Shown in pieces: positions 988 to 31,943 of a DNA stretch of 33,880 nucleotides. A model generated the notes under the pieces. That model did not search any database. It had not been told where the DNA came from and worked only from the letters and a program-made list of their open reading frames with translations. Location of the stretch: contig JYFJ02004228.1 in NCBI GenBank assembly GCA_000934665.2, positions 1-33,880 of the forward strand. Reading direction: 5' to 3'. The stretch is from Catajapyx aquilonaris (Eukaryota). Position 1 is the first letter of the stretch; each line of letters begins with the position of its first letter. A program made the position numbers and the translations under genes.

Positions 988-1941
988 ATTGTCATTATTG
1001 ATGTACTGCACAAGAAGTGCCATCAGAGAGGCTGGACCTCCCATAGGATGAGTTGCATTATCGTAGCTCTCATTACCCCTCTCCTCCATCCACTTTCTCT
1101 ATCATAATTACTGGCTGCTAGAAGAAAAGGAGCTCATGTCTTTGATTCATCATTTGGTCATCACATTATCTTGACTATTCACTGAAGTTTCTGGGGGAGT
1201 GATACATACTGCTGGAAGAACATGCCATCTAATTGCCACAAATCCAAGTTATAGATTATTATTTTTTAATTTTTCTGTTCTGGGCTACAATGCTAATGAG
1301 GGAGCATCCCTATCTCGATGCCCTGTATGAAGAGAAGCACATTCCACTATGAAACAGGAAGTTAAGCTAACATATGCAATAGGGTGAGCAATCCAAGAAA
1401 TTGTCTGGTTGTAACACTAGCATTTCACCTGTGAGGGCTGTTCTTCAAGAAACCACCAATCATGTGTAACACATGCATCATACGCAGTCCATCATATGAA
1501 TCTAAATACAATCAGGAATCAGGCTTGTGTGTTTCACAACCTCCTATGTCATAGCCATGGATGGACAGATTGGTAGTGGTTAACTACTGAAAAATTAAGG
1601 CTTGAGTTCAAGACATATTGCTTAGATTGAGAACATTTGAAAGGATTGCATGAGGTGATATTTTCAGCTGACGCCTTGACAGAGCCTGTAGTTAAAATCA
1701 CTTAGTGAACCATATGCATAATCCTACCTGAGCCAATCTTCTCCTGCCCCCCATATGCATACTCGCACAACTTCTTGCGTAATTCCTGAATGCAAGTGCA
1801 TTGAACAATATATGAAGGTCACATTAATCATTATTTTTGAGCATTCCCTTGCCAGAATACCTTCCCACTTGCTTCCTTAATAAAAATAAGAGTTAGAATT
1901 TTTGACAGAAGAACTAAGGAGACCATTTCTTTCTTTGTCAG

Positions 1942-2249
1942 GTCTCTGGTACAGTACTCATCCCGACAACTCAGAGGAAAATGCTTCTCAGCCTTTCCAA
2001 TGGTCTCCTTCATGCTCCGATGAGCACCATCAAAAATTGAAAAAAACCTTTAGTTGTGATGTTTGTGGCAGAATAATGAATGATAGCAGTAATTTGAGGC
2101 AGCATAGGAAAGTCCACACTGGTGAAACAACATGCCCCATATGTAACATGGTTTTGAGTAGGGTAAATCGGTTGAAGGGTCATATGCAGAGGGTTCATGG
2201 CAAGAATTTAGATTTGTTCACACAGGGTGGACATGGGCAACAAATTTAG
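1942..2249 (+). CDS. ZF variant exon 1 (C2H2 pair, HTGETTC class)
   Basis: Acceptor tttctttctttgtcAG ends 1941, phase 1; CDVCGRIMNDSSNLRQHRKVH-TGETT-CPICNMVLSRVNRLKGHMQRVH; TAG stop. Confidence 0.88.
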
Positions 2250-3313
2250 AGGCTTCGTCTCAAATGATATACAATATCAGCTTAGTGGTCCAGTCTTTAG
2301 GACTGGTATTCCACTTCTGCAATCCCAGTTTCAATCTTTGGAGCGGCCAGATGAAGTTTTTGCGGGTGAAAGCGAGTTGCACAAATTTTCTATGTATTCA
2401 AGGACTTCTCAGAGTTCTGCTGTTTATTCTGGTGCAAAAATACAAGAGCACTGAAGTTCAAGCCAGACAGGATGATAACATGCTGCTTGTTTTATAACTT
2501 GGCTCACATCTGCATTGGCAGAATGTCGGATAATTATGCCCAAGGCTAGTTGGTTCCATGGAGGGAGGGAAAGAAAGGGTTGGGTGGGTTGCATAGGGGT
2601 GAAGGTGCCATCAGTGCAACTGAAATTGGGCAGGCAAAGAAGTACCATATTGACATAGGAGAGTCCCCAGCAATTCAACCAATGCGGAGGTGAGCTAAAT
2701 TATGAAGTACACTGTATATTATCATGGGTCACATCAAGTCAGAAAAGCGGGGTTAGAAAGTGTTATTGAGTGATGTCCATAATGACACCTGAAACAAACT
2801 GGTCTGAAGTGTATAGAATAAATCAAAAGTATATTATTTATCAAAATATGTAGCCTACTTGCATTTTGGCTAACTTTTGTCCATCTGTAATACTTATGGA
2901 AAAATTACTATAAAGTGCATGTTGAACGCCAGGTGAGGTACTCTATTCCAGGCATTTTAAAATTAACAGTGTTGTTAGTTTTCTTGTGTATGCTGCTGCT
3001 TGTTATTTTTTGAAATATTGAATTACATTTGCATTGCTGACACTTGCAAAGAAATATTATTGCCATCTGGTTCTTGACAAGCAGTCTTGTCAGTTTTATG
3101 TACTTTGTAAATAGTGAAGGAGAACATAAAATAGTGCATGCCAATAAAAATTGATGGGACATGAATGATGGTTATCTCTCCTTTCCTTCCAATCACACTG
3201 TTAGAGAAATGGCCATTGGAAGTTGTGTTAGTTAATGGATTGATAAATGACGAAGATTTCATTAATTTTGAAAAGCCACCTGAAAGACTGAGACCTTTTC
3301 TTTCCTTTGCCAG

Positions 3314-3714
3314 GGGTCTGGTACATAACTCATCAGGACGGCTCTGAGGAGGAAAACTCTTCTCAACCCTTCCAATGGCCCACTCCATATATAGATGACA
3401 ACCCGCCCAAAGTGAAAAAGACATTCACATGTGATGTATGTGGCAGGGTCATGAATGACAGTAGTAACTTGAGACAACATAGAAAGATGCACACAGGCGA
3501 GACAACATGTCCTGTGTGCCAAATGGTGTTGAGTAGAGTTAGCTGTCTGAAAGACCATGTGCAGAAGGTGCATGGGAAGCCCTTAGAATACTTTAAGCGG
3601 GGGCGCATGCAGCAGCATTCTAGAAATGCTAATCCATCTGCTGGGCGGAATAGAATGGGACGGTCTCACATGAAAGATGAATCGGGTGTTGCGAGGGCAT
3701 CGAGGCATACATAA
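3314..3714 (+). CDS. ZF variant exon 2 (close paralog of exon 1)
   Basis: Acceptor ttttctttcctttgccAG ends 3313, phase 1; CDVCGRVMNDSSNLRQHRKMH-TGETT-CPVCQMVLSRVSCLKDHVQKVH plus a basic tail. Confidence 0.88.
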
Positions 3715-6267
3715 AAGGGTGTTTTTTTTTTTGAGGATTTGGTCACTGTATTAGTTTCATGTACCCTTTTTTTTACTGCTATCAACCAGTCCTAACCAAG
3801 GCTTGATTTACTGCTACACAGGGAAGGCATTAAGTGCTAGTGCTCGCATGGTTCTGGTTCTGGCACACCACAATTACAGTCCCATCACAAAAAAATTCAC
3901 TGCATCATTTAAAATTGTAAATATTCAGGGCAGCTTGAAGCTACCAGCAGAGCAATCTGTCTGAACTTGTCACTTGACACTGACATCCCTCTTTATCAGT
4001 AAGCTGGCCTTTTCACTGCATTTTCACAGTGACTGACGTTTCTGTTGGGGTTTGCCAAGTTGAGGAAGATGGGAGTGACTATGGATAAATATTATTCTAC
4101 CTTGACTATCTGTTTACATGGGGCAGAGTAGTAGCTGCAAAAGAATGATGATGTGTGTTCGGGTTTTTCCTTTAATGAAAGTGTTAGGTCATGGCACCTT
4201 CATGCCTCTGGCAACATTATAACTGGAATTGTTTTTGTGACGAAATTGTAAGCAGTTTCTGATTGATAACCACATGTTATCGTTGAAGCAGTTTCCACCT
4301 GTAACAAATCAGTCCTGTAATATATACAGCGGACGATAAAAGAGATAACGGGATGTGTTTGCTGGAAGTGACATGATGCACTGTGTGTGAACATTCACCA
4401 AAACTTTTCTCCCAAAACTGTTGCTAACTGGGAGAAACTCAATGCAATGCAACATCTGAGAAATGTTATATCCAGGGAACATTTATATAATCTGCTTATG
4501 AATGGACCATGGTCTTAGAAGAATAGGTCGTGACACTCGCCACCATCTTGCATGCCATTAACCCTTCCCACATTGGCTCTGTATACCTGCAATGGAATCA
4601 CACTCTGGAACATACTACTATACTACTCACCGGATCTGGTGGCCATCGTGGTATAGCACTATAGGCAGTAATCGGTGGGGGAATCGTCTCGTGCTTAGGA
4701 TCACATGGTCAGGATATGTTTGGGACTATTCCCCTATCAATTACTGCCAATAGTGCTGTACCAAGATGGCTGCAGGCGCAAGGATAAGGCGGATATGTGA
4801 ATATAACACTAGCACCAATGTGGGAAGGGGTAACGGCATAGCTTTTTCTAGTGGGCTGGGATAGAAGTGTCCAAGGGCTGGAATGGATGTTACTCAAAAA
4901 TGTCCTGAGCAGGAAATGTACAATTGCCATTTTAAGAATAATTACCTATGATGCTCGTAAGAATTAAGTATAGCACTGTATCATATAAATCAGTCCATGG
5001 TCGTTATTTGTGCATAAGACGTGTGTTTGCAGTAAATGTTGCTGTTGAAAATAAGTTATCGTACTGGAAAAACTATTTGAAAGAGTTGTGGTGCTGAATT
5101 TTACTGAAGTACCCACATAACAGGTGCAAGAGCTGGCAGAAAAGTAGTCAGTGAATTTGTATTTTACAAGTCCATGACTGTGTTTAAATCTGGGCTTGCA
5201 GTTTCGTTCAAAGTTAGGGGGAATTCAAGTATTTTAACACCAATTGTGTTCACCAGCTCAAGCTTAATTAGGTACCTACTATGGTTGAAAGGTTAACTGA
5301 AAATGTGGTAGGGCCTCACACCTGTTTTTATTCAAGACTGGCATTTATAGGAATGATGTCATAATCATGTAAAGGTACTGATGGGACTTCGTAGCCGGAT
5401 TTATATGGCCCACTGACAGATAAGTTATGCTGCTTTGTTTTGTGGATGCTTAGTGGAGGACAGAATTTGTGGTCCATACCTGAACCTGAAATTATAGTAG
5501 GTGTAATGAAATTGACATTCTTTATCTCTTGCATTGGAAAATTTTGAATGGACCATTGGCAGCAGACACTTTTACAGTATTAAGTAGTTGGTCACAACAG
5601 CATGTCAAATGTGGCCAGTTTTTCTTATCCATGTTTTAAAGTGATTTATGTGTATTCCATGTCAGGTCAAAATGATTTTGCCTTCTGTGTAAATGGCATA
5701 GAGAATTTAATACGTGTCTTCCTTCAATTGTGTGCAATGTACCAGGTCTTTGTCATGTACAGTGAAGATGTACACATAAAGACATAAAATTTACCAAAAA
5801 TATACTGTCATGTAACTTAATGACTTGAAATGTCACCCATCCATCCATTGCATTGGGCTCTATCCAAACATATTTGCTCTGTGAAAATGAGGGGTGGTCC
5901 CAAGTTAGCCTGCTGTACCGTGACACTACGGGAATGGATTGCGACTGAATGTGCTGCAACACTATGCTTTTGGTTCACCTCTGTTCTACTACCCTGGCTC
6001 AAATGGTGAAGACATGGTCCCCCGGTCCTGTACCAGCCCACCACCGAGTGGTATCACCATAGCACAAGTCACAGTTGAAATCACTGATTTACTGCACTAG
6101 AAAAGCATTGCAGTAACAATGATCTTTTTGAGAAGGAGTAAATCTAGAGTTGTGTGCCAAGAGTAACCTCCATTAATGTGGAATTGGCCTGTGCATTCAT
6201 GGTGTAACATACTCTGATTCTCCCCTACAAGTATGAAGGCCTAAGGGACTGTATTTTTTCTTGGCAG

Positions 6268-6539
6268 GTCCGCTGTATAGAATCCGGCAGGTCACCTCTA
6301 TGGAAAATGTCCCTCTGCCATTCCTGAGGACTCCCACATATTCTCATAAGCTCCTTTCAGATACTAATGCCAAGACTTTTGTATGTGATATGTGTGGCAA
6401 AGTGGCTCACAGTTTGGGTGGTTTGTACCATCACAAAAAGGTTCACACAGGTGAAACAACATGCCCAATATGTCATAAAGTTCTCAGTACAGTTAGTAAT
6501 CTTAAGGTGCATATTCAGTATGTTCATGACAGTAAATAG
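6268..6539 (+). CDS. ZF variant exon 3
   Basis: Acceptor ttttttcttggcAG ends 6267, phase 1; CDMCGKVAHSLGGLYHHKKVH-TGETT-CPICHKVLSTVSNLKVHIQYVH. Confidence 0.88.
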
Positions 6540-6909
6540 AGAAGGTAAACATATATGGGAAGGGTAACTGGAGCTATATCTATGATGAGGTGAGGATTAA
6601 CCTACATTTAAGAATGCAAGAGAGAAAATTGAAGCAGTTTTATTTTGAAGTTGACCAACGTGTGTTGCATGAAGGGATGAATTTCAGCATAGCAGAAATA
6701 TCTTTGTTACCTGAACTTCCATCTGCAGAATAATTTTTTTTGTGCTGTTCTCAAAAACTACAAGATTCCATGCTTGAGACATTTTGATATGGGATAGATT
6801 GGTTGTAACTTCCAATACCGGTACTTTCACTGGTTATGCCCATAAAATCATGAATAATGACCCTGTAGGGATGAAATCAGACAGTTCAGGAAATTATTAT
6901 TTTCTTCAG

Positions 6910-7184
6910 GTACCCAGTGCAGTGTGCTGTATGACAGCTGAATGGGGAATGTTCCTCAACCTCTCTTCCAAATTTCTTCACTTAACTCTAATTGTAAGTC
7001 ACGGACTTCCAACACTCCTGTTTGCGATGTGTGTGGTAAAAGAGCAGGAAATTTTTCTAGCTTAGATCACCATGAAAATGTTCATTCAAGTGAAACATGC
7101 CCAATACATCATGAAGTGCTTAGTACAGTTAATAATCTGCGAGTGCACATCTGCTATGTGCTTGAGAGTAAATTATGGGGGTAA
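6910..7184 (+). pseudogene. Decayed ZF variant exon 4 (pseudo-exon, paralog of exon 5)
   Basis: Acceptor tttcttcAG ends 6909; in-frame TGA at 6939-6941 where exon 5 has TCA; one linker codon lost; finger 2 has its second Cys changed to His and its last His changed to Leu. Confidence 0.85.
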
Positions 7185-7572
7185 ATTTGAGGGTGGGACA
7201 GGTGTGTATCTTTAGTGAGGTGAAACATGACCTTGAATAAAAGCAACGAAAAAATGGCGAAGCGTGTCTTTTTACTTGCATTGACACTACAGACTGTTCC
7301 TGTCTGTGTGGTTTATAAATCGAATCTGTGCCACCAAGACTTTTTAATTCATTTTTAAAAGGGGGAGGGTGGAGGGTTGTAGTTTTAGGGGCCAAACTTG
7401 GATGATGACTGCTGTATTTCCAAAGACCAACAAAGTCATCTATTTTGTAGAATTGGACAATAGGCCTATGCAGTACCAATTGTAACCCATTAACTGATTA
7501 AGGACATAACACATGAATGAAACGGTAATAGGGAAGGAGTAAGAGAGCTAAGGAATTTATTTTTCTTGGCAG

Positions 7573-7877
7573 GTCCCCAGTGTAGTATGCTGCAAGACAA
7601 CTCAATGGGAAATGTTCCTCGACCATTCTTCCGTGCTTCTTCACTTAACATTAATCGCCAATCGCAGAATCCCAAATCCCCTATTTGTGATGTGTGTGGC
7701 AAAAGAGCAGGCAATTCTTCTAGCTTAGCTCATCATAAAAAAGTGCATACAGGCGAAACAACATGCCCAGTGTGTCATAAAGTTCTTAGTACTGTAGGAA
7801 ATCTCAAGGCTCACATGGTGAGTGTTCATGAGAGTACATACCGTTCCCAACTGTCCATTACTCCTTGGAAGCAATGA
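7573..7877 (+). CDS. ZF variant exon 5
   Basis: Acceptor tttttcttggcAG ends 7572, phase 1; CDVCGKRAGNSSSLAHHKKVH-TGETT-CPVCHKVLSTVGNLKAHMVSVH. Confidence 0.88.
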
Positions 7878-8810
7878 GGAAGGTGTACCTGTATGTGTTA
7901 CCATGTGGTGGACTTTCAATGACATAGCAGCTTTTATATCTGTAATCCATCTTTATTGATACTTTGAACAAGCTGCAGTAAATAGTACCCTTGAACTGTA
8001 CATGCAAAGATGCAATGTGAATGACGTGACTGAGTGCTAGAAGGATTTTTGTTTTCTGCCAGGCAGGGGAAGTCCAGTATATTGATCAAGACATGGGTCT
8101 CCCATGTGGATTTCAGAATGTTCCTGTCTCCAACCTACAGCAAATACAGTCTCTCTTTAAAACCTTGTTCATTACTTTTAAATTTAAATTTAAATTATTA
8201 TTTTTTCCCACCAAGCATGAGCAGGCTGGTGAATAATTAATGGCATCACTGGTTGATGGCATTTTAAAAAGGTTTATAAAAGTGTCAAATGTATGTCACC
8301 TTGCCAGATCATGTACTACATGAGACATGTTGAACTTGACAGTTGTCATAAGTGAAACTTATTCTTATGATTGTCTGCAAAGGATTGTTGTTGAAAAACA
8401 GAGTTCCATGGGAAGGTTCATCACATGGACTCAGGTTCAAGCTAATCTGAAGTCCTAAAGGCAGCTACTTTTTATGTGTGATACCCTAACCTTGAGAATC
8501 TGTAGTAAATGACTCACTAGTTACACATCCTTCCCCTTTACTTCAACACTTTCAAGTGCCAATCTGTGATACTAGGGTGCCCTTCCAGGAATTGATTCAT
8601 GTTGTCAGATTGTGCAGTTTTACACCTGAAGAGTGTATTGCTGCTTTTACCTTTTAGTGAATTTTGCAAAGCAGCATCTTCAAGTTGTGTAATTTGTAAT
8701 AAAGCATGTTCAGATTGAGGTCAAAAAGATTTTCAATTGCATCTCTAGATATCAAGGGGTACCAAATATATCATTTTGAATAATTATGTTGATATGTTGT
8801 CAGCTGTCGA

Positions 8811-8890
8811 CAGGTACACAATCCTCTACCGGAAACCCTTGGGACCAGACATGTTTCGGAATTCGGAATTTTGCAGATTTTGGAGTGATA
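8811..8890. mobile_element. Fragment resembling a pogo/Tigger-type transposon end
   Basis: caggtacacaatcctctaccggaaacccttgggaccagacatgtttcggaattcggaatttt recalls Tigger/MER46-type termini from memory; partner end not found. Confidence 0.4.
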
Positions 8891-9776
8891 TAGTCGTGGA
8901 CAACTGAGAATGCAATTCTGTAACCTCTCACTTTGCACTTCAGTTACCAGCTGGTAATAGCAATATTTTTGAAAGGAATTCATTACAAAACACTTGCTTA
9001 TAGGAGTACAATAAATATATACCTGAATAATATTTCCATTGACGGGGGTATGTTTTTGATGGGTATTGTTCACTTCACATTGTGTCTGTGACTTGGAGGG
9101 TGCAAGGGAAGGGGACTATGTCTTCCTGCAACAAAAGACGGAATCAGTGTCAGTACTTGATCAAGGATATTTATTGTTTTGAAGTGGGGAGACGACGGGA
9201 GAGGGATGGAGCTTCTGGACAAAAGTGGGAGGTTCTAGAAGTGCATTCTCGATATCAATAGATTATAATCCAGTATGAACATGCTGTATATCCACATACT
9301 ATCCCAGGAATATGTTAATCACTCAAATTTAAATGTCTGTGTGTACAGTCGCGAGCAGAAATATGTGGATGGTAGACCAGAGCTCTTCCTCTTCCTATCC
9401 AAGAGCAGTATAACTTTGCAACCTGCATTTCTTTAAAATTCATAAAGGCATAGAGGCATCCCAAGTATTAAAGCTTCATCTGCAGAGAAAAGCTTGGTTA
9501 GCGAGAGAAATACGGGGTTGTGTTTGAGAAAAATGGTGGAAAGTGGTGAACAAAAATAGTAAACTCAACTGACATAGGCACCTGAGGAGTTGCTTGCCAC
9601 AATAACTAGATCAATCTAGGTACAAGTGCTTGAAACATTCAGATGTGTTATCAAAAGGTCTGCCTGTGAATTACAATTATTATGTGCCCTACTAACAGTG
9701 GGTATTTTGTTCAAACGAATGCCTCATGTGACATTAACTATTGAGAGGGCCTAAGGATTGTTATTTACTGTTGCAG

Positions 9777-10078
9777 GTTACCTGTGTACTTTCGAGCAGG
9801 ACAACTCAATGGAAAATGATCCCTCACCATTCTCAAGTGTTTCTTCGCATACTGAGAATACTGCAGTAGATAAAAGGGCTAATGTTTGCAATATTTGTGG
9901 CAAAGAGGCGAGCACTGCACGTGGTTTGGCTTCACACAAAAAGGTTCACACAGGAGAAACAACATGCCATCTCTGCCACAAAGTACTCAGTACAGTTTTT
10001 AACCTGAAGGTTCATTTGCAAGGTGTACATGGCATGCCATTTCCTACAACGCAGTCAGTAAATGCTTATAAAAAGTAG
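9777..10078 (+). CDS. ZF variant exon 6
   Basis: Acceptor tttactgttgcAG ends 9776, phase 1; CNICGKEASTARGLASHKKVH-TGETT-CHLCHKVLSTVFNLKVHLQGVH. Confidence 0.88.
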
Positions 10079-10227
10079 GTGCCAGTGGGAGAAAGCGAGG
10101 ACAGGACAATTATTGTTGATATTATGTAATGACTGCAACATTACTCAGGGCTGATTGAGAAGCTTTTGTGCAGAAAAATCAGAGGCAGAATTGGGTAGCC
10201 TAAGGAGATGGTTTCTTTCCTTGTCAG

Positions 10228-10523
10228 GTTTCTGGTGTAGTAGCCTTCAGGGCTTCGATTCAGTCAGCTCCATGGATATCACACCAGAATCCATTCCGGT
10301 ACCACCTACCGAATGGCATGCTTCAGACTCACAAGACCTACAGCCCAAATCCAAGAAGACTTTTGAGTGTAATGTGTGTGGAAAATTAGTCAATCACAGC
10401 AGCACTTTGAGTCATCACAAGAAGGTTCACACAGGTGAAACTCAGTGCCCATTGTGCCAGACAGTATTTAGTCGAACAAGCTACCTAAAGGTCCACTTGC
10501 AGAAGGCTCATGGACAACCGTGA
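10228..10523 (+). CDS. ZF variant exon 7
   Basis: Acceptor tttctttccttgtcAG ends 10227, phase 1; CNVCGKLVNHSSTLSHHKKVH-TGETQ-CPLCQTVFSRTSYLKVHLQKAH. Confidence 0.88.
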
Positions 10524-10989
10524 TTATAAGTGCAACTGTACTGTTCAATATTGGGTGGGGATTGTTATTAAAACTACAGCTCTTGCATTGCTGCAAACCA
10601 CCAGGGAAAGAGGTCATGAACTGGCTACCATGTGTGCATTGTGAACTCTGTTCTGGTCAGTAATAAAAGTTAATTCAGGCAAGCAAGCAATATTTTCGAG
10701 TGTTCACATCAGAAATGCCTGATTTTTTAGAACTCTCAGCCGCTGTTACAGATTGTGCTTTACAGATTCTGTACTGATTTAATTGCTATTTTAAGGTAAT
10801 CAATCCTTATTATTATAGTATGAGGCTTATATGCGATTGTAGTAAAGACATTTCATTTGGAGTTGCATATCATTGAACACTGACTTAACGCACTTTGATG
10901 ACATTCTCCATTAAGTATTACTATTTCTTGAAATTTATCAGACGTGAAGTGTTGAATAGTTATTGGAAGCCCACTTTCTTCTTTGTCAG

Positions 10990-11264
10990 GTCTCTGGGAA
11001 AGTGGAAGTTCAGTGAACTCATTGAGCAGTGCATCTCAACATTTTGAGTGGCCTGCTCCAGGTTTGGAGGATCAGCAACCACATCCAAAGAAGACATATA
11101 CATGCAGTGTCTGTGGCAAAGTAGTGAGTCATAAAAAAAGTCTTGGGATGCATATGAAAGTGCACACAGGAGAAACAACATGCCCAGTGTGTCACAATGT
11201 GTACAATAGAAAACATTACATGAGATTGCATCTGAAAAAAGACCATGGAATTACAAATTGGTAG
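10990..11264 (+). CDS. ZF variant exon 8
   Basis: Acceptor ctttcttctttgtcAG ends 10989, phase 1; CSVCGKVVSHKKSLGMHMKVH-TGETT-CPVCHNVYNRKHYMRLHLKKDH. Confidence 0.88.
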
Positions 11265-11544
11265 TATGAGTTATATTTTCATCCCAAAGATTCTGAGGTA
11301 AATATTACTGTCGTGCTCATATTTTATATTCTGAAATGTTATCTAATACTATAAGATTGTAAGCTGTATGGTGTGTATTGACATGGGTCATTAAAACATA
11401 ATTGAAAACACTGGTGTAATCGTTTATCAACATGCAAGTGATCGGAAGAATTTTAATTACTGAGAAGTTTGGCCATTGGATGCTGGTTTCAGTCTACTGA
11501 CATTAAAATTTTTAGACTCCTTAGAAATTTTCTTTCCTTGTCAG

Positions 11545-11810
11545 GTGATTGGGGCAATACCCTTCCTGGCTGCTCAATGGATAGCTCCTACCAGGAGTAC
11601 CAATGGCCACCTTCGAATACTGATGACCAACGGTCATTCAAGAGGACTGTTTCCTGTGATGTGTGTGGAAAAGTATTGAGCCATGATACATTGAGACATC
11701 ATAGAAAGGTTCACACGGGTGAAACGAAGTGCATTATTTGCCACCGTGTCTTCAGTCGGGTTTTTCACTTGAAAAAACATATGGAACGATTTCACTCAGA
11801 GAAAAAGTAG
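11545..11810 (+). CDS. ZF variant exon 9
   Basis: Acceptor ttttctttccttgtcAG ends 11544, phase 1; CDVCGKVLSHDTLRHHRKVH (C-x2-C-x11-H)-TGETK-CIICHRVFSRVFHLKKHMERFH; AATAAA at 11814. Confidence 0.87.
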
Positions 11811-12433
11811 GCAAATAAAACGTGATCAGAACAACTATATCTGCTAGCAGTGAGCAGTGACGAAACAGATGCGTGAGAGGCCTCACTACAAGACAGCTTA
11901 GAAATTAGATAAAGGAGTAGTTGCTTGCAGAGAACATTTGCTAGTGCTGTTGGAAATTCATGTCTACTGTTCTTGAGTAATTGAATGATTTTGTATATTT
12001 GTAGGAGAGTTCAAAATATCCCTTTGTCATAACAAGTGACATTAAAGCGCCATTTTTATTGTGGACTAGTTATTTGGTGCCATCGACACATAATACTTTT
12101 ACTTTGCCATTTACGTACCGGTGTATATTAAGGCAGTCAAGATTTGGACAGGGGATTTTTTGAACATTTAAAAATCGTCCCAAAGTATTGTTGGGTCACA
12201 TCATCTCAGCATGTCCACCTAATCATGTACCACTTTTATGGGGAAGACTTCATGGCAGCAAAAATAAAATTTAATGGAGAACAAAATAATGATCTCAGAA
12301 TACATCAAATTGGAGTTTTGATGGTGCATGATATGCTTATTCTTTCAGAAATGAAAAATTGTTGTACACTCAATGTTAACAGGCACATATTTTCAAAGCA
12401 ACAGGCTAAGGTGGCCTCTTCTCTCTTTGTCAG

Positions 12434-12711
12434 GTTACTGGGATGATACCCTTCAGTGCAGCTCAGTGGAATATCCGTGTGATGTTTACCAATGGCCTTC
12501 TTCAAATATTGTTGCACATGCACAACCCTCTTTATCAAAGAAGACATTCACATGTGATGTGTGTGGAAAAACAATGGGTGATACTAGTAATATGAGGCAG
12601 CACAAAAAAATGCATGCTGGTAAAAGCAAATGCCCTCTGTGCAATTTGGTGTTGTGCAGACCAAGTGGCATTAAAAGGCACATGCAACAAGTGCATGGAA
12701 AATTCTCTTGA
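12434..12711 (+). CDS. ZF variant exon 10
   Basis: Acceptor ctcttctctctttgtcAG ends 12433, phase 1; CDVCGKTMGDTSNMRQHKKMH-AGKSK-CPLCNLVLCRPSGIKRHMQQVH; AATAAA at 12781. Confidence 0.88.
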
Positions 12712-12934
12712 ACATTGAAAATGGAGTAGGTCTACTACTAAAGAACACTGCAACTGTCAGCACTATCAGTTTACAGGTTAAATAAATATAGTGATAAAAT
12801 ACTCTATGATGGAATGCTCGTGTTTGAAAATGAAGCGCAAGAGTGAGTTACTCTGTTAGGCCTTTTACTGGGGTGTTTGCAATTTGCTTACTTCTGAGAA
12901 ACGATGTTAAGGAGTCCTGTTTTTTCCTTGCCAG

Positions 12935-13218
12935 GTGGCTGGGACATTGCTCTCCAGGGTAGCTCTACTGCAGTCCAATTGGAAAAAACTTCACAGCCTC
13001 TGTGGCTCACAGTGTGTAACAAGGAGGAGCTGCCAAAATCCAAGAAATCATATGAATGTGACATTTGTGGAAAGTTCATGAGCCATAGTAGCACCTTGCG
13101 GCAACACAGAAAAGTGCACACCGGTGAAACTAAGTGTCCCATTTGTTCCATGGTGCTCAATAGAATATATGATCTGAAAATGCACATGCGCATTATACAT
13201 GGACAGAAGGATTTTTGA
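12935..13218 (+). CDS. ZF variant exon 11
   Basis: Acceptor ttttttccttgccAG ends 12934, phase 1; CDICGKFMSHSSTLRQHRKVH-TGETK-CPICSMVLNRIYDLKMHMRIIH. Confidence 0.88.
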
Positions 13219-13767
13219 GAGAAGGGTGGGTGCCTTGCTTCGTGGTTTAGGGTTTCCATATTAATTACAGAACTTAATCAGGCCATTATAGCAGAGTCAC
13301 AGGATGTACCCGTAACAGAATTATTTTCACAATTAGGCATATTGAAATAAGGTCATCTAGATACAACGTTTAGGGATTTCTTGTGTTCATTACAAAATAT
13401 TTCATTCATACTTTGGAGGAGCGTAAATTATCTGTCATGCTCCTCTCCAGCTCGATATTTTCAGTTACTTTCATGGGCATAGTTGTTGTAAACATTATTC
13501 CCATCTAATATGATGCTCTCCATGTGATATGTTGCAATATTTTTTAAACATCAGGTTGTCAATTCAGTACTTGTCATGCAAAAGCTAGACTGTGACAGCT
13601 CTCCCACATTCGTTCAGTTAATACATTTTTGCCATAAGTAAAGGTAAAGCACTTGACAACAACTTTTGACACAGACTGAAGATATTATTCATGTTGCAAT
13701 TAAAATTTTGAGAGGTACGTGACTTGCCTCTAGTATCACAATTTCTCTTCTTCTTTCTTCCACGTAG

Positions 13768-14075
13768 CCGAAGAGGAATTCCCAGAGCGAAAGTTTTCGA
13801 GCCTGGTGGAATTTGAGCTGCCCCAGAGTAGTTTTGTCATGACTAGTCTGCCTACAGAAGGAAAAGGGCAACAGCCAGGTAGACCCCCCTCCCCAGCCAC
13901 CCATCTGCAGTACACCTGCTCCATTTGCTACAAGTCATTTGGGTGCTATGGATCCTTGCAAAACCACAGGGGCCTGCACCAGGGCACCAGCATTTGCCCA
14001 GTTTGCCACCAAGTGTACAGCACTTACAGTAATATGAGACGACACTATAGAACTGCTCATGGAGAGACAGATTAA
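13768..14075 (+). CDS. ZF variant exon 12
   Basis: Acceptor tttctcttcttctttcttccacgtAG ends 13767, phase 1, open into ORF 13806; CSICYKSFGCYGSLQNHRGLH-QGTSI-CPVCHQVYSTYSNMRRHYRTAH. Confidence 0.85.
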
Positions 14076-14258
14076 GAGAAGGATAGCTTTCTCCTTTTTT
14101 TCCAACATCCCCCTTTGGAGTCCAATTGTCATAAAGTAGTCATGTATTGTGAAATATATGTCGATAAAAGCACTGTCACTGGGAGTCTTGTTCTTGTTAT
14201 TTTTCTTAAGGGCATATGAGGCAGAACGAATGACTTTTTTTCCCCCGTTACGTTGTAG

Positions 14259-14476
14259 GGCTGCTGGTTGCAAGTGACACCGAACCTGGAACCATAGCCA
14301 AGTACCAGTGCCCGGATTGCTTCAGTTCCTTTAAGCACTTCTCATCTCTTAGAGACCACCGGCCATTTCACTCAGGAATGACTGTGTGTCACATTTGCTC
14401 CTATGCGTGCAGCACCGTTGGGAACTTACGAAAGCACTTGCGTGTCGTTCATAAGTGGAATGAAAATGCCAAGTGA
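14259..14476 (+). CDS. ZF variant exon 13 (absent from the ORF track)
   Basis: Acceptor ttttttttcccccgttacgttgtAG ends 14258; manual phase-1 translation (x)LLVASDTEPGTIAKYQCPDCFSSFKHFSSLRDHRPFH-SGMTV-CHICSYACSTVGNLRKHLRVVHKWNENAK*, TGA at 14474-14476. Confidence 0.85.
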
Positions 14477-14559
14477 CAATAGACGTAGTTGCAAAGCCAC
14501 AGATGTAATACGGGATCTATGGGAACTGAGCAGACTGGTTATTTTTCTCTTACCAACAG

Positions 14560-14855
14560 CACGCTACTTCACAATGGCAGGGGTACCTCCTCAGGCCAAT
14601 TGGATCAGGCATGGTGCAGATGTGTATCAGTGCAACTTGTGTGAAAAGGAGTACCGAAGCCGCCACGCTCTCCGCCACCACATGGCTGTCCACAAGGGGC
14701 GTACTCAGTGCCCAGTCTGCCATACAACATACAGTAATACCAGCAATCTGCAGAGGCATATGGCTAATGCTCATGGACGGGGGACAGGCCTGTGCAGTGG
14801 CACAGTGAACTCTGAAACAGGCATAGAACCTGAGAGAGACGTGTTATATCCTTGA
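14560..14855 (+). CDS. ZF variant exon 14
   Basis: Acceptor tttttctcttaccaacAG ends 14559, phase 1; CNLCEKEYRSRHALRHHMAVH-KGRTQ-CPVCHTTYSNTSNLQRHMANAH. Confidence 0.86.
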
Positions 14856-14958
14856 ATGCNCCCCCCCCCCCCCCCACCAACTTTTGAGTAGTTTGAAGAT
14901 CATTAAGAAAGGGTCCAGCATGCAGTTAAAAATATTCTCTTGTCCCTTCTTCATGCAG

Positions 14959-15236
14959 CTGGAGTCAAGCAGAGAGGTAGATGGCCTGGGAATGTTGAGC
15001 AGTTCTGTGATGCTCCCCGCGTTGTCTCTGAGCGTGCCCGTGACCCACTAGTGTATGTGTGCAGTGTTTGCCACAAGGAGTTTAGGCGCCAAGATTCACT
15101 GAAGAGTCACCGTGCACTGCATCGAGGAGACACATCCTGCCCTATCTGCCACAAGGTGGTCAGCCGCAGGACACACCTACGGAGGCATCTTAAGATTGTG
15201 CACAAGGTTGACTTGTGGGACAAGAACACTTTGTGA
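14959..15236 (+). CDS. ZF variant exon 15
   Basis: Acceptor ttctcttgtcccttcttcatgcAG ends 14958, phase 1; CSVCHKEFRRQDSLKSHRALH-RGDTS-CPICHKVVSRRTHLRRHLKIVH. Confidence 0.87.
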
Positions 15237-15399
15237 GAAATACAGTAGCCTTTGAATCCCTTTTAAAGCCCTCCCACAGTGTGTGTCACATTGAGTGGGA
15301 TGGGGGGATATAACATGAGACGTATCCTACGTTAAACAGCATTAGTGACGGGGGGGTCTTCTTCATTTACCTCATTACTTTTTTTTTCTATGTACTTAG

Positions 15400-15647
15400 G
15401 GCACTGGTTTCATCTCCCGGAGCCATCTGCATCATGTGACCCTGAGCCTACTATCCCTTTCCCAGCTGTGAGCCACCCATACATTTGCAACGAATGTGGG
15501 CAGAGTTTCAACCACCAAACATCACTCAGTGCCCACCGTCACAAGCACCGGGGAAGCACTCAATGCCCAGTGTGTCATGTGGTGTTTAGTCGCCCAAGTA
15601 ATACTAAGCGGCATATGTTGACTGCACACAAGTTGGGACAAAAGTGA
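15400..15647 (+). CDS. ZF variant exon 16
   Basis: Acceptor tttttttttctatgtacttAG ends 15399, phase 1; CNECGQSFNHQTSLSAHRHKH-RGSTQ-CPVCHVVFSRPSNTKRHMLTAH; AATAAA at 15749. Confidence 0.87.
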
Positions 15648-15929
15648 ACTCAATTTTATCAACTCACATTGTGCTTGTGAAAGTGCCCCAAAAATTGGCG
15701 GGAAACTCTTGTACTACTTGTGCTACCAGCACAACCCATAGCTGGATGAATAAATCAATTGAACTGACCTGGCATGAATCTGTACATAATTTAAGGATTA
15801 AGGTGCACATGAAGAGGTGGGAGGGCAGCATACTACAAAGAGAACGTTGCTTTGCTTGCACTGTAGATGAGATATAACAGTGAGAGAGAGAAATTGGAGC
15901 GGGTCTTTTCTTTATATTCCCTTTTGCAG

Positions 15930-16147
15930 GCTGCGGTGGCGGCCTTGTGCCTGCCCTCCCTTCCCTCCCATGCGACCTGTGTGGGCGAGTGGTCAGTGAC
16001 CGCTCAGCTCTCAAGCGCCACATCGACTCAGTGCACACCCGGGGAAACTTCACCAGTTGTACCATTTGCGGCAAAGTCTTCAAGAACAAATATAGCATGT
16101 GGGCACACAGGAGCCGCATCCACACCAATAAGGCAATGCCTTCCTAG
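15930..16147 (+). CDS. ZF variant exon 17 (Broad-like long-linker pair)
   Basis: Acceptor ttttctttatattcccttttgcAG ends 15929, phase 1; CDLCGRVVSDRSALKRHIDSVH-TRGNFTS-CTICGKVFKNKYSMWAHRSRIH; AATAAA at 16185. Confidence 0.87.
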
Positions 16148-16193
16148 GTGCAGTAGGTGAGTTAGGGAGAAGATTTTTAAGAAGAATAAAAAT

Positions 16194-16236
16194 AGAGAGA
16201 GAGAGAGAGAGAGAGAAAGAGGGAGAGCAAGAGAGA
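16194..16236. repeat. (AG)n microsatellite
   Basis: agagagagag... run just after the AATAAA following exon 17. Confidence 0.9.
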
Positions 16237-16606
16237 AATATATTTGAATATGACACATGCATTTAAAAGATCATTGGCTCTGTTCAATTAGTGACCATTT
16301 TTGGGAAGCACTGAAATAGGTCATACTTGCACAATTAGTTGCAGCGGTGAAATTGAGGTGGCTATGTGCAATGAACAGTCTGTTTTAATGGGTAGCATGC
16401 AAAATACACACCACACCATGCATGATATAAACTCACTGCACATTTGATTGAGCAAGTAAGACTTAAAGTGACACTTTAGCACATCGCGACAATAAGGCAC
16501 CCTTTTTAAGACCACTCCCATCCCCGCCATGGAAATGACTTTTCATTGACATGTGTAGAAAAGCAAGGAAGCCCACACTTTTTCTCTCTCTCCCTACCAA
16601 TTATAG

Positions 16607-17085
16607 GGCGGGCGCTTGGACTGCCCCCGAGCGATGTCCCGTACGGACCAAGCGTCACTATGAGGGACCTGGCCTGCCTGGGCGTTGCTACCTCATCATC
16701 CTGGCCTCCAATCACTTCTCCCCCAGCCTCCCAAAGCGCTAGCACACTTGCCCCCAAAGCCACCTCCTCAGCAAAGAAGTTGTGTCCATTCCAATGCCCT
16801 GTGTGCTCCCAGACCATCAGCAACTACTACAACCTGCTGAAGCACATCCGTATTCGACACAGCATTGGGCAGCAGAGGGCCCCCTGCCCTGTTTGCCACC
16901 GACTCTACAAAACCAAGTACTCACTCAGGGAGCACCTGAGGCTGGTGCACAAGCAGCCTCCCACGAGGCCCTACACCAGAGTTGGGAGCCGAGGTGGTGG
17001 TGGTGGAGGAGCTGGTGCAGGGGGAGGTGGAAGAGGGTTGGGGGAAGGCAGTGAGGATCTCGCACATCAGGGAGGCATGCAGTGA
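16607..17085 (+). CDS. ZF variant exon 18 (Broad-like, Gly-rich tail)
   Basis: Acceptor tttttctctctctccctaccaattatAG ends 16606, phase 1; CPVCSQTISNYYNLLKHIRIRH...CPVCHRLYKTKYSLREHLRLVH. Confidence 0.85.
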
Positions 17086-19378
17086 ATATTGTGCAGGGAA
17101 TATCCGTCGGATGTGATTCAGCGTTAGATCTTCTGTTGAGTTGCAAGTGCCATGTGGACAGGGCAGAGGCAAGGGCTGGTTTCTCTCAACAAAACTAAGT
17201 ACTTGACTTCTGGTTATAGAGGATGTGGATGATTATGCATGAAACCTAAACTACCTATGCAGGCTGAGTCTTTTGAGGTACTCTGACTCACAAATCAGAT
17301 TCTTCAGTGTGTTTATTACTTATGTACCTTGACAACCGTTCCAAAAGTGAAATGAAGGTTAGCCATGGCTTTTTATGTCAACTGTTCACATGCAACCCCA
17401 GATTTCAAACAAGGCAGTTGCATATAAATGGCATATGATGAAAATATTCTTAAGATTATTTTTCAATGAACAGATAGAGGTGATAGTGGGAGAGCAAGCA
17501 CATGCAGTATAAGGTAGGGGAGGTATTCTTGCACCAAATAGACTGCTCCCAACTGCTCATGTGCTTGTGCAGTCCCATTTTTACCCTCAACCAGCTCCCT
17601 TGAAAAGTAATCGTTAGCACTGATGGAAATGAAGGCAGAGGGATCATATATCAAAATAATGTCCAATGCTTTATCACTGGATTGACACCCAAATGTACTT
17701 TCTAGGTTATTGACCACACATGTCTTAGAGAGGTGTCGTAATTTATGGCACTTCTTATTCCTGCCCTTCTACCATCATGTAAGGAATGTATTGGTCAGTC
17801 CTACTCCATAATGGGTCAGGTTATCAAGTGCATTTTTTCATGTGCCTGTCTTGTCCACATTCTAAACCAGCACAAAACTGAAGTATTTGAAGTTGAGCAG
17901 TTATATTGTGCTAAAGTCAAGGGGCACATTTATAAGGAAGTTTTATATCGCTGTCTCTAAAATTATGTTGTTAAGTTTAACTTTCCCACATTATAATACA
18001 TATTAATTACAATTTATTACCAGAAATTAATTTATGGAACACGAGGCAGGAATATGCATCTCTATCCCTCCATGTGCCACTCGATCCCCATGGAGACTTT
18101 TTTTTTAATTAATGTAGTTCAGATGCAGTGAGCAAAGAGTAGTAATTTAGAGGGAGTTTAAGATGCCCTTCTGTTTTAAGTTGACTCATTTTTATTCGAC
18201 TGCATTTGAGTATCATGTGCCAAGGAGCACAACGTGCATAGTTTGGAGATTCTTAGCATTTGAGTATGGATGAGAATACTCCAACTTTGGCAGCTTTTGT
18301 ACAGTATTTTGGTAGAACCTCTGAGCATTTATTTTGGTCCTAGTCTGATGGTCACAGTATTACGAGTGGATGTGTTAGTGGGGACGGATTAGTCCTGACA
18401 TGTAAAAGGAAATAATTCACATATTTGTGACAAGTGATGAGGTACATTTAGAATTGAATGTTAGAAAGTTTGTGACAAGATTGTGTTATTTTTGCGAGTT
18501 TCTCATTTACCAATACAGCAACTGAATGTGTCCAGGGCCATTTTCAGACTGAACCTAACCAAACGCTTTAATAGCTTAATATAGTACATTACAAAGAGAT
18601 CAGGAAAAGTGATCAATCACATATGTAGTGCTTCCCAGATTGGTTACTTACTTTGATGTTTCAACCCTTCACGTCTTGGGAAGTGCAACACTTTGTCTCC
18701 CGAAATTGCAGGTTTGATTGCCAGAACAGTGGTCTTCAAGTAGACCGAGCAACATGATCAGAATATAGTGTAGTTTTATTTTGTACCTTAGATGAGCTTG
18801 TCTATGATGCAATATTATGGCATAAAGGTAGCATAATTATGTGAAACCTCATGTTGTCCTTCATTCCTCACAACTCTCGTCAAGAATGTGCTTTTTTATT
18901 ACTTTTGTTAAGGAGCTGTCTTCAAAGCCAGGAGCATGCAGGCTGCATGATAAAGGTATAGTTTGATAAACTTTATGAGAAAAGTGGCATTTCCTGTTAG
19001 TAGTTAGTTGATGACATTTTTCTATCTTTTCTGTTTATTTTGTGTATTGCAGGAAGGATGTCATTTAAACAGACTGTGTCACAGAGTAAAACTAGAAAAA
19101 GTGTTTCTTGCACTTTACATTTAAAGGTTTCAACCTTAATATTCAAATATTCAAAATGAAGCTGTGAAGACAACAAGTATCAGGGGGCTTTTTGTATTAT
19201 CAGCAGTGTATGAGCCTCATTCACATGCAGCACTGTAATAGCATGTACGTACCTCCCTGCACAGCCATTACATTTTGATAAGGTATTTTGCCAGATTATT
19301 TGCTGCAGAATTCTAAAAGAAGTGTCATGCATATAAAAGCATGACTCTTGTGTTACTTTCTTGGCCATCTCCCTTCAG

Positions 19379-19797
19379 ATCGCTTTGTGTGCCCAGTGTG
19401 CCAGCAGCACTGCCTAACTTCCTACACTCTGACTCGTCACATTGAAGTGAAGCACCATCCCCAGAGCCAGCCCCACCACTGTCTTCAATGTGGGAGGGAA
19501 TTTAGGACCAAGTACAGCCTCTCAACACACGTGAGCCGCTACCACCGGTCTTCAGCTCCTTCCATGGAGAGAAGTGTACCAAGAGGACCTCCTGCTCTAC
19601 AGAACAGCAGTCCCATGACTTCTCCCAGGGGTTCTCTGCCAGGAATTGCCACATTCTCACAGTTACACTCTTTGCAAACAAATATGTCAGGATTCTCAGC
19701 TCAAGCTGATTCAAACTCAATGCCAGAGTTCCCTTCCTCAAATAGAGAGCTGCGGCAACATAATGATTCAGCTACAATGCATCCAGAGGCAGACTGA
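19379..19797 (+). CDS. ZF variant exon 19 (Broad-like, last of the array)
   Basis: Acceptor ctttcttggccatctcccttcAG ends 19378, phase 1; CPVCQQHCLTSYTLTRHIEVKH...CLQCGREFRTKYSLSTHVSRYHR plus a Ser/Pro-rich tail. Confidence 0.86.
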
Positions 19798-21538: not shown

Positions 21539-22563
21539 ATCTATAATTTAGTTTGTTTGTGGGTGTGTGGATTTGTTTGTGTGTAGATTCGCTATAGAAA
21601 ACCAGGGGGCTACCAGTGTACTGGGGTGCTGGTATATGTAGGGGTCCATATACACTAGATACAGTATATTAGGAAATGTGTTTGTAAAAATTTCCCTTCC
21701 ATACACTCGAAACTCGAAATGTCTTAAAATGGGCCTTATAAGATGCAATCACACCCCCACCTCGTTCCATATGTTTGCTCTAAAGAACTTTAGAAATGTA
21801 CTGTACGTACAGATGCATGGTGGAAAATTTTGTTTTCAACGCGGAGTTATATTTGTACTGTAGTATTTCATTGTATTTACTTTTGTCTGGAAGTCTACTT
21901 TCAAATCCCACAAAATCCCGGAATTACCATAAGATACGAACTCACGTGAGGTGGCCAATTAGCGTAATTGGTGGATGCGTTGAATTTACGGCAATGGTTT
22001 AACTTGCTAGGTGTTGTTGCGTAAGGGCATTTCGTAGGGGAGACGAAGTGGGGCTGCGGAAATGCGCCCACGGATGTTAAGGTCCCGGGTCCTTGATCCC
22101 GTGCAGAGTCGGGCCGTCTCTGGCTTCGTTTCGGATGGAATCTCCTCAGACTAATCCACCCGGGGAGTTCACAAAATGTACCCTTTGAGAATTGCACTTG
22201 CACCTTAGTCACCCTGCCCGGGGGCTACGTCAAAATGGTTCCATCAAGACGAAATAAACGTTCCCTCCCTGCGGTACGATGCAGGGAGGTAAATAGGCAT
22301 ATTTTTAAAAAGGCATTTCCATGGGAATGGAAATTGATATATTGAACATTATTGATGTAAGTTAATTGTTAGGCCCGAGAAGTGAGAAGATTTGGGAATA
22401 TGCGTGTTGTGGGAGTTAGGTTCATTTTCGGAAGCTGAAACATGCGGCGTTCGATTCCTTGGAAAATGTAACCCCCCGATATGCTAATTGAAGGCGGTGT
22501 AGGGGCCTTCCCCTGGATTTCTATAAGGGACAAACATCCAAACTAACTAACTAAAATATAGAT
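21539..22563. mobile_element. ~1 kb non-autonomous element (copy B) with imperfect microsatellite-containing inverted ends; Helitron/Helentron-derived or MITE-like
   Basis: Left end atctataatttagtttgtttg...tatagaaaaccagggg resembles the reverse complement of the right end (atctatattttagttagttag...tatagaaatccagggg); interior duplicated at 1-674; no coding capacity. Confidence 0.6.
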
Positions 22564-26318: not shown

Positions 26319-27986
26319 ATGGGCTCCGACGAGTTTTCTTCTAACTTTGGAAGTAAGTGATTTGCTGTCATCAAAGCAACGATCGAGCGAAATTTTCGGA
26401 TCACTATACATACTTTGTGTTTGATGGCAGCACTGCACATTAAAAACCGAATGGTGATGGTCATTGTAACGGGCTGTCAGCATTTCCCGATGGTGTGACA
26501 CTGTTTAGACAAGTGCTTGACTTTTTACAGGCGAAGAATTTGACGGGTGGGATGATGGTCATGATTTTGATAGCTGGAATCATGGCGTTAAACACCATAG
26601 TGGTGAGTTTGGTCAAATTCAATCTGAAAAATCTCATAACCTTTATGAAGATTAGTTCCCTGTCACTCTTACTAATAGCACTGCTGTTAACGCAATATGT
26701 TGCTAAAACATGGATTAATATTATTACAGCATTCTTATCTCATGCTTAACCGACTGTCAAGTTTCCTGATCGGCAACCGATAAGTAATTGGTTCTTTAAA
26801 GGAGCCTTAATCCTTATCAAATTATGACGTATCATGTTTGATGATGGCTCAAGTTGCTTACAGGATATTATGGTAGTTTCCTATTGAAAATCTATTACTC
26901 GTATGAGAGATTCAATCTTTTGTTACGCCTTATTGCATCCAATATGTAGGCTACGAAAAGACGAGGCAGAATTCTATTGTCTGGTGCTTGCTTACATAAT
27001 GTGACCTGTAGTGTGCAGGTCAATAGATTAGATTGATAGATTAATTTGCATATTTAGATAATGAAATTGGTGTTGCTCATTTTCATACTAGTTACTGCCT
27101 CACATAACCTACAGAATTAACTACTTGAAACGAGGAAGTTGCTTACGAATTGTGGGAAATGCGCCAATATACGTAAGTACAGCATCGCGATAAGACTACA
27201 GGAAATTTTACACGTCATCATAATGCTTGTCCTTAGCTTTTCTGAGAACATAATCATGCTGCCACTGCCATCACATGTCAAACATACTCGACCAATTTGC
27301 TTTTTCTGTACCACGCCATTGCTCCAATACCCAATCACATATGCATATTAATCATAGCAGTTGAACCCGAACTCGTAAGAAAATTTCCGTTGAACAAATT
27401 AGTTCATTTCACATGAACTGCAATAATCTTCAGCAAGTGCTGTCAGTTGTCTGCTGAATTTATTTTTCTTCTCTGAATTGGAATAATGTTTGATGATATG
27501 CATGTATTAATGCTCGCGATGTCCTTCATTTCAGTTCGTGAGAGCCCACCACTGGAGATAATCCTTCCGGTGGTGTTCTTCGTGGTGTTCGTCATCTTCT
27601 TCATCACCTGCTGCATAGCCGCTATAATCCGCAAGCGAGACGAGGAGAGACGACGAGCCAACATCACCTACACCTCCCCAATAATAACCCCTGGCTACCC
27701 TAACTATCCAACTGCCATGCCTTCTCACCCTCACCAGTACGGAGGGCAGCCCCCGTCCTTCCTCCATCCGACGGCCCTCACCACCGTCTCTGGAGGAGGA
27801 TACTCCAACTTCCTGGCGCAACAGTCCGACCTGCCCCCATCGTACGAAGAAGCCACACACCAGAGCCTGGACTCGGGGAACAAGACCCTCCAACACCAGC
27901 AGCAGGCAGGGCTGGTGGGTGTCCTCAGCACGGTGCCTAGTTCGGGACACTGGCAGCAGCAACAACCGGGATGGGTGCAGCAGTGA
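26319..27986 (+). CDS. Small single-pass membrane protein with a Pro/Gln-rich tail and LPPSY (PY) motif; join(26319..26352,27535..27986), 161 aa
   Basis: CACCATGG start in an exon bounded by ttacAG (ends 26286) and a GTAAGT donor (26353, phase 1); acceptor tccttcatttcAG ends 27534, phase 1; TM IILPVVFFVVFVIFFITCCIAAII followed by RKRDEERRR; LPPSYEEA. Confidence 0.75.
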
Positions 27987-31293: not shown

Positions 31294-31943
31294 ATGCTCT
31301 TAACATTTTATGACACTTTAGGTAAGGACTTCAACATTCCTCTTTGGGTGCACCATGAGCTTCACTGAAGATGCGATTAACTTTAAAGGTATTTTACACG
31401 TTATATGCATTTAGTGCTCCGTAGTTAAGTATACTTATATTTTAGATGATAAAGAGTTCCAAAATGTTGGAGACGACTTCACCACCACCAATGAGGGCTG
31501 GCTGAACACCAAGCGTGGAAATGATATCATTACGTATGATACGCCTTCTCACTGTAAGTAGGTCTCTGACAATCTTCCAAAGGATTGTAACTAATGGACT
31601 GGCCCTTTTTTTGGCCATCTCCACAGCTGCTGACAATGGACTCGACATGTTTATTATATTGGGTTTCCTCCTGTTCTCGATTCTAATCATCGTCATATTG
31701 TGCGTGATATGTGCCAAACGTGAAGCCAGACGGTTACGGTACGGCATGGCGTTCACCACAGCTCCAATGCCCAAGTCGCAAGTGACGTATGTGACTCCGC
31801 AACTACTTCCAGACCAGAACCAGCACCAGCCCTTTGGTGCCGCCAGTCCATTTGCACCAGCACCTGGTCCTCCTCAGCTGACGATTACGACAGCTGACGA
31901 TTGCAGGGCTGATTTCCAGGGTGTGCAGACGTCTGGCGTATGA
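31294..31943 (+). CDS. Second small single-pass membrane protein, possible paralog; join(31294..31321,31446..31553,31627..31943), 150 aa
   Basis: Phase-consistent GT/AG junctions (GTAAGG 31322, AG ends 31445, GTAAGT 31554, CTAAT branch point + ccacAG ends 31626); TM MFIILGFLLFSILIIVILCVIC followed by AKREARR and a Pro/Gln-rich tail; first coding exon less certain. Confidence 0.65.

Follow-up and report, generated by a model that had tools for sequence, protein, structure and literature searches.

Contig JYFJ02004228.1 of the Catajapyx aquilonaris assembly (GenBank GCA_000934665.2) was analysed from position 1 to 33,880 of its forward strand; this whole stretch of 33,880 nucleotides (nt) is called the window. 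It carries a row of 19 zinc-finger cassettes on a single strand, extending from the acceptor of unit 1 at 1942 to the stop codon of unit 19 at 19797. Every unit has the same anatomy: a pyrimidine tract leads to a phase-1 YAG acceptor, behind which a linker and a pair of C2H2 fingers are encoded up to a stop codon. Taken as a whole, the array is likely to represent the 3' portion that varies among the isoforms of one transcription-factor gene, with a tramtrack (TTK)-type BTB domain as the likeliest front end. That the region consists of alternative terminal exons of one gene is very probable; a BTB domain at the front end, assigned by analogy, is the favoured, less certain part. The need for an upstream coding exon ending in phase 1 is supported by the sequence of the cassettes, while the shared donor, the BTB front end, the mode of splicing (cis or trans) and the 3' ends are points that we only infer.

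The window has a base composition of about 40% G+C and looks like eukaryotic DNA. Both of its strands were scanned for the finger pattern C-x2-C...H-x3-5-H. The plus strand contains 38 matches: 37 belong to the 19 units, at two per unit except for unit 4 with a single one, and the last is an isolated match at 1430; the minus strand has just three isolated single matches, due to chance. A profile derived from the units retrieved exactly 19 of the six-frame open reading frames (ORFs) of the window, all on the plus strand (E-values 1e-38 to 8e-18), and nothing else. An earlier reading of this DNA, made from the letters alone and called here the sequence-only reading, had described 19 units on the same strand, and the pattern scan and the unit profile both confirm this number. 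Eighteen of the units are intact, and unit 4 (6910-7184) is decayed. The distance from one acceptor to the next varies between 301 and 2954 nt: cassettes 12-17 are separated by gaps of only 83-282 nt, and wider gaps of 1-2.8 kb follow cassettes 1, 2, 5 and 18. No non-finger alternative exon with a phase-1 ORF of at least 60 codons is present in the gaps of the array, a size below which an exon would be missed, and Rfam has no match in the window.

Each of the 19 acceptors leaves two bases ahead of the first full codon, which corresponds to phase 1. The finger ORFs open only 22-178 nt upstream of these acceptors. With a strict phase rule, which demanded a YAG preceded by 12 or more pyrimidines in 17 positions and a frame open to the fingers, a phase-1 site is found in 16 of the 19 units, a phase-0 site in two and a phase-2 site in none. 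The units failing this rule (4, 5 and 6) have weaker tracts and align base for base with the site of unit 3. When both strands of the entire window were scanned blindly for a YAG with 13 or more pyrimidines in 17 positions and a phase-1 ORF of at least 60 codons, the plus strand gave 18 hits: 15 array acceptors, a second site in unit 18 and two sites in the downstream gene region. Two hits were obtained on the minus strand. None of the 19 exons starts with AA, AG or GA; therefore, no donor base creates a stop codon at the junction.

Entry of all units in phase 1 had been considered very unlikely to arise by chance. The uniformity of the phase stands, with 16 units assigned by the strict rule and three by homology, but the 19 phases cannot be counted as so many independent observations, since adjacent units arose by tandem duplication. 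In a tree of the finger cores, adjacent units cluster (1-2; 3-5-6; 7-8; 12-16; 18-19), which is the pattern expected from such duplication, with no branch strongly supported.

Conservation of the intron sequence is confined to the last 20-40 bases before the exon. In ungapped comparisons of nine pairs of paralogues, identity is 23-33% between -300 and -101 and 20-37% between -100 and -41, and reaches 55-80% over the last 20 nt; beyond about 40 nt, it is at background level. Alignment of units 1-11 reveals a conserved block in which a branch site resembling CTAAGG, located about 27 nt upstream, is followed by a tract rich in T and by CAG/GT. Judged from its sequence, this block is the trace expected of selection acting on 3' splice sites. 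Neutral intron sequence is expected to be randomised, since silent sites between the units are saturated (see below), and this is what is observed. A second strong phase-1 acceptor is visible in cassette 18 at 16727, 120 nt downstream of the first; its use would give a shorter linker ahead of the same fingers.

At the protein level, the eight zinc ligands show no variation among the 18 intact units. The silent sites between units are saturated while the amino acids are kept, which reflects purifying selection. Codons for identical residues are the same in 471 of 926 cases (36 pairs of nine units), the mean proportion of synonymous differences (pS) is 0.78 (45 pairs of 10 units) and the ratio of nonsynonymous to synonymous substitution rates (dN/dS) has a median of 0.22, computable for just 14 of the 45 pairs. 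The proportion of nonsynonymous differences (pN) is 0.50 at the contact positions -1, 2, 3 and 6, versus 0.24 elsewhere in the fingers, and the sets of residues at these four positions are all distinct among the 18 intact units. In the linker preceding the fingers, pN is lower than pS in six of seven pairs and equal to it in the seventh; moreover, the second codon of the exon encodes Trp in eight units (1, 2, 7-11 and 16). Because this entry peptide is conserved, coding must start at the acceptor, upstream of any Met.

The fingers match Pfam zf-C2H2 (PF00096) with E-values of 1.6e-8 (cassette 1) and 2.5e-9. An AlphaFold (AF2) model of cassette 1 contains two strand-strand-helix (beta-beta-alpha) fingers, with a predicted local distance difference test score (pLDDT) of 84-94 over residues 31-90; the entry segment is modelled with low confidence (pLDDT 54-58). 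Two units depart from the common form. Unit 9 has 11 rather than 12 residues from the second Cys to the first His of finger 1. Unit 4, which shares 77% nucleotide identity with unit 5 over 232 nt, is by its sequence a decayed, more recent copy of that unit: it contains an in-frame TGA (6939-6941) and has lost one linker codon, one Cys and the last His. The sequence-only reading had counted at least 18 functional variants in the window, and 18 units do look functional with regard to purifying selection, invariant ligands, splice signals and the absence of downstream donors.

A stop codon follows every finger pair, 3 to about 80 codons past the last His. Donor-like sites (at least 7 of 9 consensus positions) are absent from eight units (8 and 12-18); in the others they are sporadic and not at conserved places, and none past finger 2 is in phase 1 in any unit. 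Being without a donor, the exons would be terminal. An open frame or phase-matched donors linking successive finger units, as in a tandem multi-finger gene, were not found here. A G/GT donor hidden in the His-Gly that follows finger 2, which would allow serial splicing, was considered and ruled out: the Gly codons are GGC, GGG or GGA, never GGT. In cassettes 3 and 7, the codons of the Thr-Gly-Glu inter-finger linker form a donor-like phase-1 CAG/GTGAA (6451 and 10435). On paper, these sites could link finger 1 of one cassette to a later cassette; most likely, they are a by-product of the coding sequence.

The following path from gene to protein is proposed. A common 5' part, located upstream of the window, would end after the first base of a codon. 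The transcript (or the donor transcript, in the case of trans-splicing) would be spliced to one of the 18 usable acceptors, and the chosen exon would provide the two bases that complete the split codon. This exon would add a mostly disordered linker of 3 to 60 residues, one C2H2 pair and a stop codon and, as it has no donor, it would also end the body of the mRNA. With each choice of acceptor, the same front end would receive a different DNA-reading head; since the contact residues differ, a different DNA motif is implied for each isoform. Judging by lola, broad, fruitless and tramtrack, this constant part would most likely be a BTB module of the TTK type.

The array is the same kind of system as the lola arrays; its layout is already known and does not represent a new kind. 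Drosophila lola is reported to have 20 isoforms, 17 of them with C-terminal C2H2 fingers (PMC11426971). For Nasonia lola, more than 180 alternates are described, which share one hub exon, extend over 350 kb and follow one another at a median of 1400 bases, and for Apis lola, 58 alternates (PMC5000498). The sequence-only reading had measured the array against a lola of about 20 variants, and the novelty it suggested is overstated in view of these published numbers of alternates. The likeness lies in a same-strand, regularly spaced row of alternative 3' coding exons with different zinc-finger ends, grown by tandem duplication, which in lola are reached from one hub exon. The differences are a tighter spacing (the 301 to 2954 nt from acceptor to acceptor), a BTB hub that would lie outside the window and the form of the heads: in 16 of the 18 intact ones, the fingers are five residues apart and finger 1 is of the H-x3-H type, and orthology with cassettes of lola could not be demonstrated.

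Other known systems share parts of this organization. TTK-type BTB factors usually have one or two C2H2 fingers and many isoforms, and their domains are stated to multimerise (PMC11426971). The Broad-Complex combines a BTB core with alternative C2H2 pairs (Z1-Z4 and further Z exons). 'Gene family expansions' of Br-C and Lola are reported for barnacles, with 80 and 63 Br-C copies, 19 on one scaffold (PMC8220330). For mod(mdg4) of Drosophila, a common 5' part and more than 30 alternative 3' exons are described, the latter on both strands and with independent promoters, joined exclusively by trans-splicing (PMC13490949). Its heads are FLYWCH and its exons lie on both strands, whereas the present array has C2H2 pairs on one strand. 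The Tramtrack domain (PDB 2DRP) is also a two-finger C2H2 module at the end of a BTB factor, and cassette 18 matches both of its fingers (E-value 1.6e-5), a similarity that is generic to C2H2, as many unrelated finger proteins outscore 2DRP.

Several observations weigh against terminal exons joined to a shared BTB front end. Among the 109 ORFs of at least 50 residues located in the window outside the array, none matches BTB and one has a weak, sub-threshold match to RCR; neither another recognisable domain nor another front-end exon was found there. The joining of the cassettes to a shared donor is a prediction from the DNA sequence. Units 12-15 have no canonical poly(A) signal before the next unit, so that a self-contained terminal exon is not strictly shown for them. 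No canonical hexamer is present between units 12 and 16, and the nearest one beyond them is at 15749; cassettes 12-16 may share this signal, with the downstream units silent in the 3' untranslated region. Similarity to BTB-linked finger pairs is weak (32-44% identity) and restricted to units 17-19. A profile of 18 cassettes gave 26 significant hits, mostly sal-like and other multi-pair finger proteins, of which two contain BTB, and a profile of cassettes 12-19 gave 507 hits, with no BTB among the best 120, all of them multi-finger proteins; single-pair relatives, if any, would rank below these 120. One sequencing run of unknown kind, resembling low-depth DNA contigs, shows a depth of 0-6, equal over exons and spacers, and no joints at the acceptors; it is uninformative on expression.

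The two BTB carriers among the 26 hits are of different types. P0019 is a four-finger ZBTB-like protein. P0024 of Drosophila setifemur (572 residues) has an N-terminal BTB and a C-terminal finger pair, to which unit 17 is 44% identical, unit 19 40% and unit 18 32%. Units 17-19 also resemble, at 35-42% identity, the finger pairs of P0001, a gene model of the dragonfly Ladona fulva that looks like a run-through of several pairs. Both share an H-x4-H first finger, a long linker and a second finger in the style of Y-K/R-T-K-x-S-L. The pairs of P0001 are probably of the broad type.

Units 1-16 differ from units 17-19 by H-x3-H in finger 1 and a 5-residue inter-finger linker, and they show just generic finger similarity to the proteins found, with no specific relative among them. 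Searches for relatives were swamped by multi-finger proteins. When cassette 1 was compared with longer proteins, none of the 10 candidates was significant. A profile of the linkers of cassettes 1-11, used as a finger-free bait, had no hit in 1.84 billion proteins; this bait is weak, as leave-one-out scores of 26-37 bits show, with cassettes 1 and 2 as the exception. In the ESM Atlas, only short arthropod C2H2 clusters were found. Of 206 pattern matches in metagenome contigs, 149 could be confirmed, and 80 loci were retained, the top ORFs having 8-58 fingers. Among the ORFs retrieved, only L070 (4423-4884), which scores 36.7 bits against the cassette profile, combines exactly two fingers with a 5-residue inter-finger linker; it may be distantly related to the short-linker cassettes.

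It is a tentative possibility that the array is a lineage-specific lola-like gene with no described insect orthologue. The 16 short-linker heads with their Trp-containing entry peptide would then form an old cassette family of their own, whose front end is perhaps not a TTK-type BTB; a very long retention of this family would follow from the saturation of its synonymous sites. The same architecture could also, though this is unlikely, be served by another oligomerisation or effector module, or by a BTB-less system in the style of lola or mod(mdg4). The front end lies outside the sequence of the window, and cassettes 1-16, with their 5-residue linker, have no specific relatives among BTB proteins. 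On the other hand, two-finger terminal-exon arrays are described for BTB genes of the TTK type (PMC11426971, PMC5000498), and the closest resemblance of cassettes 17-19 is to the C-terminal finger pair of a BTB protein from Drosophila.

As a variant of alternative terminal exons behind a common 5' part, the cassettes could be transcribed from one or more promoters of their own and joined to a donor transcript by trans-splicing, as in mod(mdg4), all isoforms of which are reported to be made in this way (PMC13490949), and partly in lola. Cis- and trans-splicing are indistinguishable from DNA, and the 1-2.8 kb gaps after cassettes 1, 2, 5 and 18 could house internal promoters for clusters of exons. 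This variant is nevertheless rather improbable: the 19 units are tightly packed on the same strand, which cis-splicing explains without extra assumptions. Finally, it is very improbable that the cassettes are independent small genes with their own promoters or serial exons of one multi-finger mRNA, for although units 3, 5, 6, 7, 9, 12, 14 and 18 have an internal Met before the fingers and gene predictors yield run-through multi-pair proteins from such arrays (e.g., P0001), conserved coding begins at the acceptor, upstream of any Met, neighbours among units 12-17 are only 83-282 nt apart, which leaves too little space for promoters and leader exons, and every unit has a stop after finger 2 and no conserved phase-1 donor there.

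If splicing to alternative terminal exons takes place as proposed, a single gene would give rise to 18 or more transcription factors, identical but for the head that reads the DNA. Given the multimerisation described for TTK-type BTB domains (PMC11426971), mixed complexes could combine specificities. The principle itself is already firmly established in lola, broad, fruitless and mod(mdg4). As ancient paralogues in which silent sites are saturated and no two contact sets agree, the cassettes form a natural series in which the sequence of a finger pair could be related to its DNA motif. The coordinates and individual features of the cassettes are given in Table 1.

Table 1. Cassettes of the array in the window and an example of the upstream splice signals. 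The left coordinate of each cassette is the first base of its exon after the acceptor.
Feature	Position	Strand	Description
Cassette 1	1942..2249	+	Phase-1 acceptor, 101 codons, two C2H2 fingers, TAG
Cassette 2	3314..3714	+	132 codons; nearest paralogue of cassette 1 (65% identity)
Cassette 3	6268..6539	+	89 codons
Cassette 4	6910..7184	+	Degraded copy of cassette 5
Cassette 5	7573..7877	+	100 codons
Cassette 6	9777..10078	+	99 codons
Cassette 7	10228..10523	+	97 codons
Cassette 8	10990..11264	+	90 codons
Cassette 9	11545..11810	+	87 codons; finger 1 spacing x11, not x12
Cassette 10	12434..12711	+	91 codons
Cassette 11	12935..13218	+	93 codons
Cassette 12	13768..14075	+	101 codons; no AATAAA/ATTAAA ahead of the next acceptor
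Cassette 13	14259..14476	+	71 codons; next acceptor 83 nt away
Cassette 14	14560..14855	+	97 codons
Cassette 15	14959..15236	+	91 codons
Cassette 16	15400..15647	+	81 codons; first AATAAA after cassettes 12-16 at 15749
Cassette 17	15930..16147	+	71 codons; H-x4-H in finger 1, 7-residue linker (broad/lola-like pair type)
Cassette 18	16607..17085	+	158 codons; long Ser/Pro-rich linker, Gly-rich tail; possible second acceptor at 16727
Cassette 19	19379..19797	+	138 codons; final unit of the array
3' splice signal block (example)	1906..1941	+	CTAAGG-like branch point, pyrimidine tract, CAG; equivalent ahead of cassettes 1-11

Several repeats and one irregularity accompany the array. Between the stop codon of cassette 14 and the acceptor of cassette 15, an N followed by a run of C (14860-14876) marks an assembly uncertainty in the densest part of the array. 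Simple-sequence repeats are present at 16178-16236, as a CT-rich run after cassette 17, and at 8168-8207, between cassettes 5 and 6. The whole array is flanked by two direct copies of an element of about 660 nt (17-674 and 21883-22547), about 21.87 kb apart and composed of blocks that are 89-97% identical. The first copy has a very high depth in the sequencing run mentioned above (394 in the first bin), which identifies the element as an abundant genomic repeat; the position of its copies on both sides of the array may be a coincidence. Adjoining the first copy, a tandem repeat with a 44-nt unit (722-985, about six copies) shows many length variants in the contigs of the run.

Downstream of the array, two paralogous-looking exons are located on the plus strand at 27477-27986 and 31627-31943. 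Each encodes one transmembrane helix and, after it, a tail rich in Pro and Gln, which in the first exon contains a PPSY motif, and their sole Pfam match is to RCR (weak and sub-threshold, E-value 0.005). These exons probably belong to one or more unrelated downstream genes, which would mark the end of the array locus.

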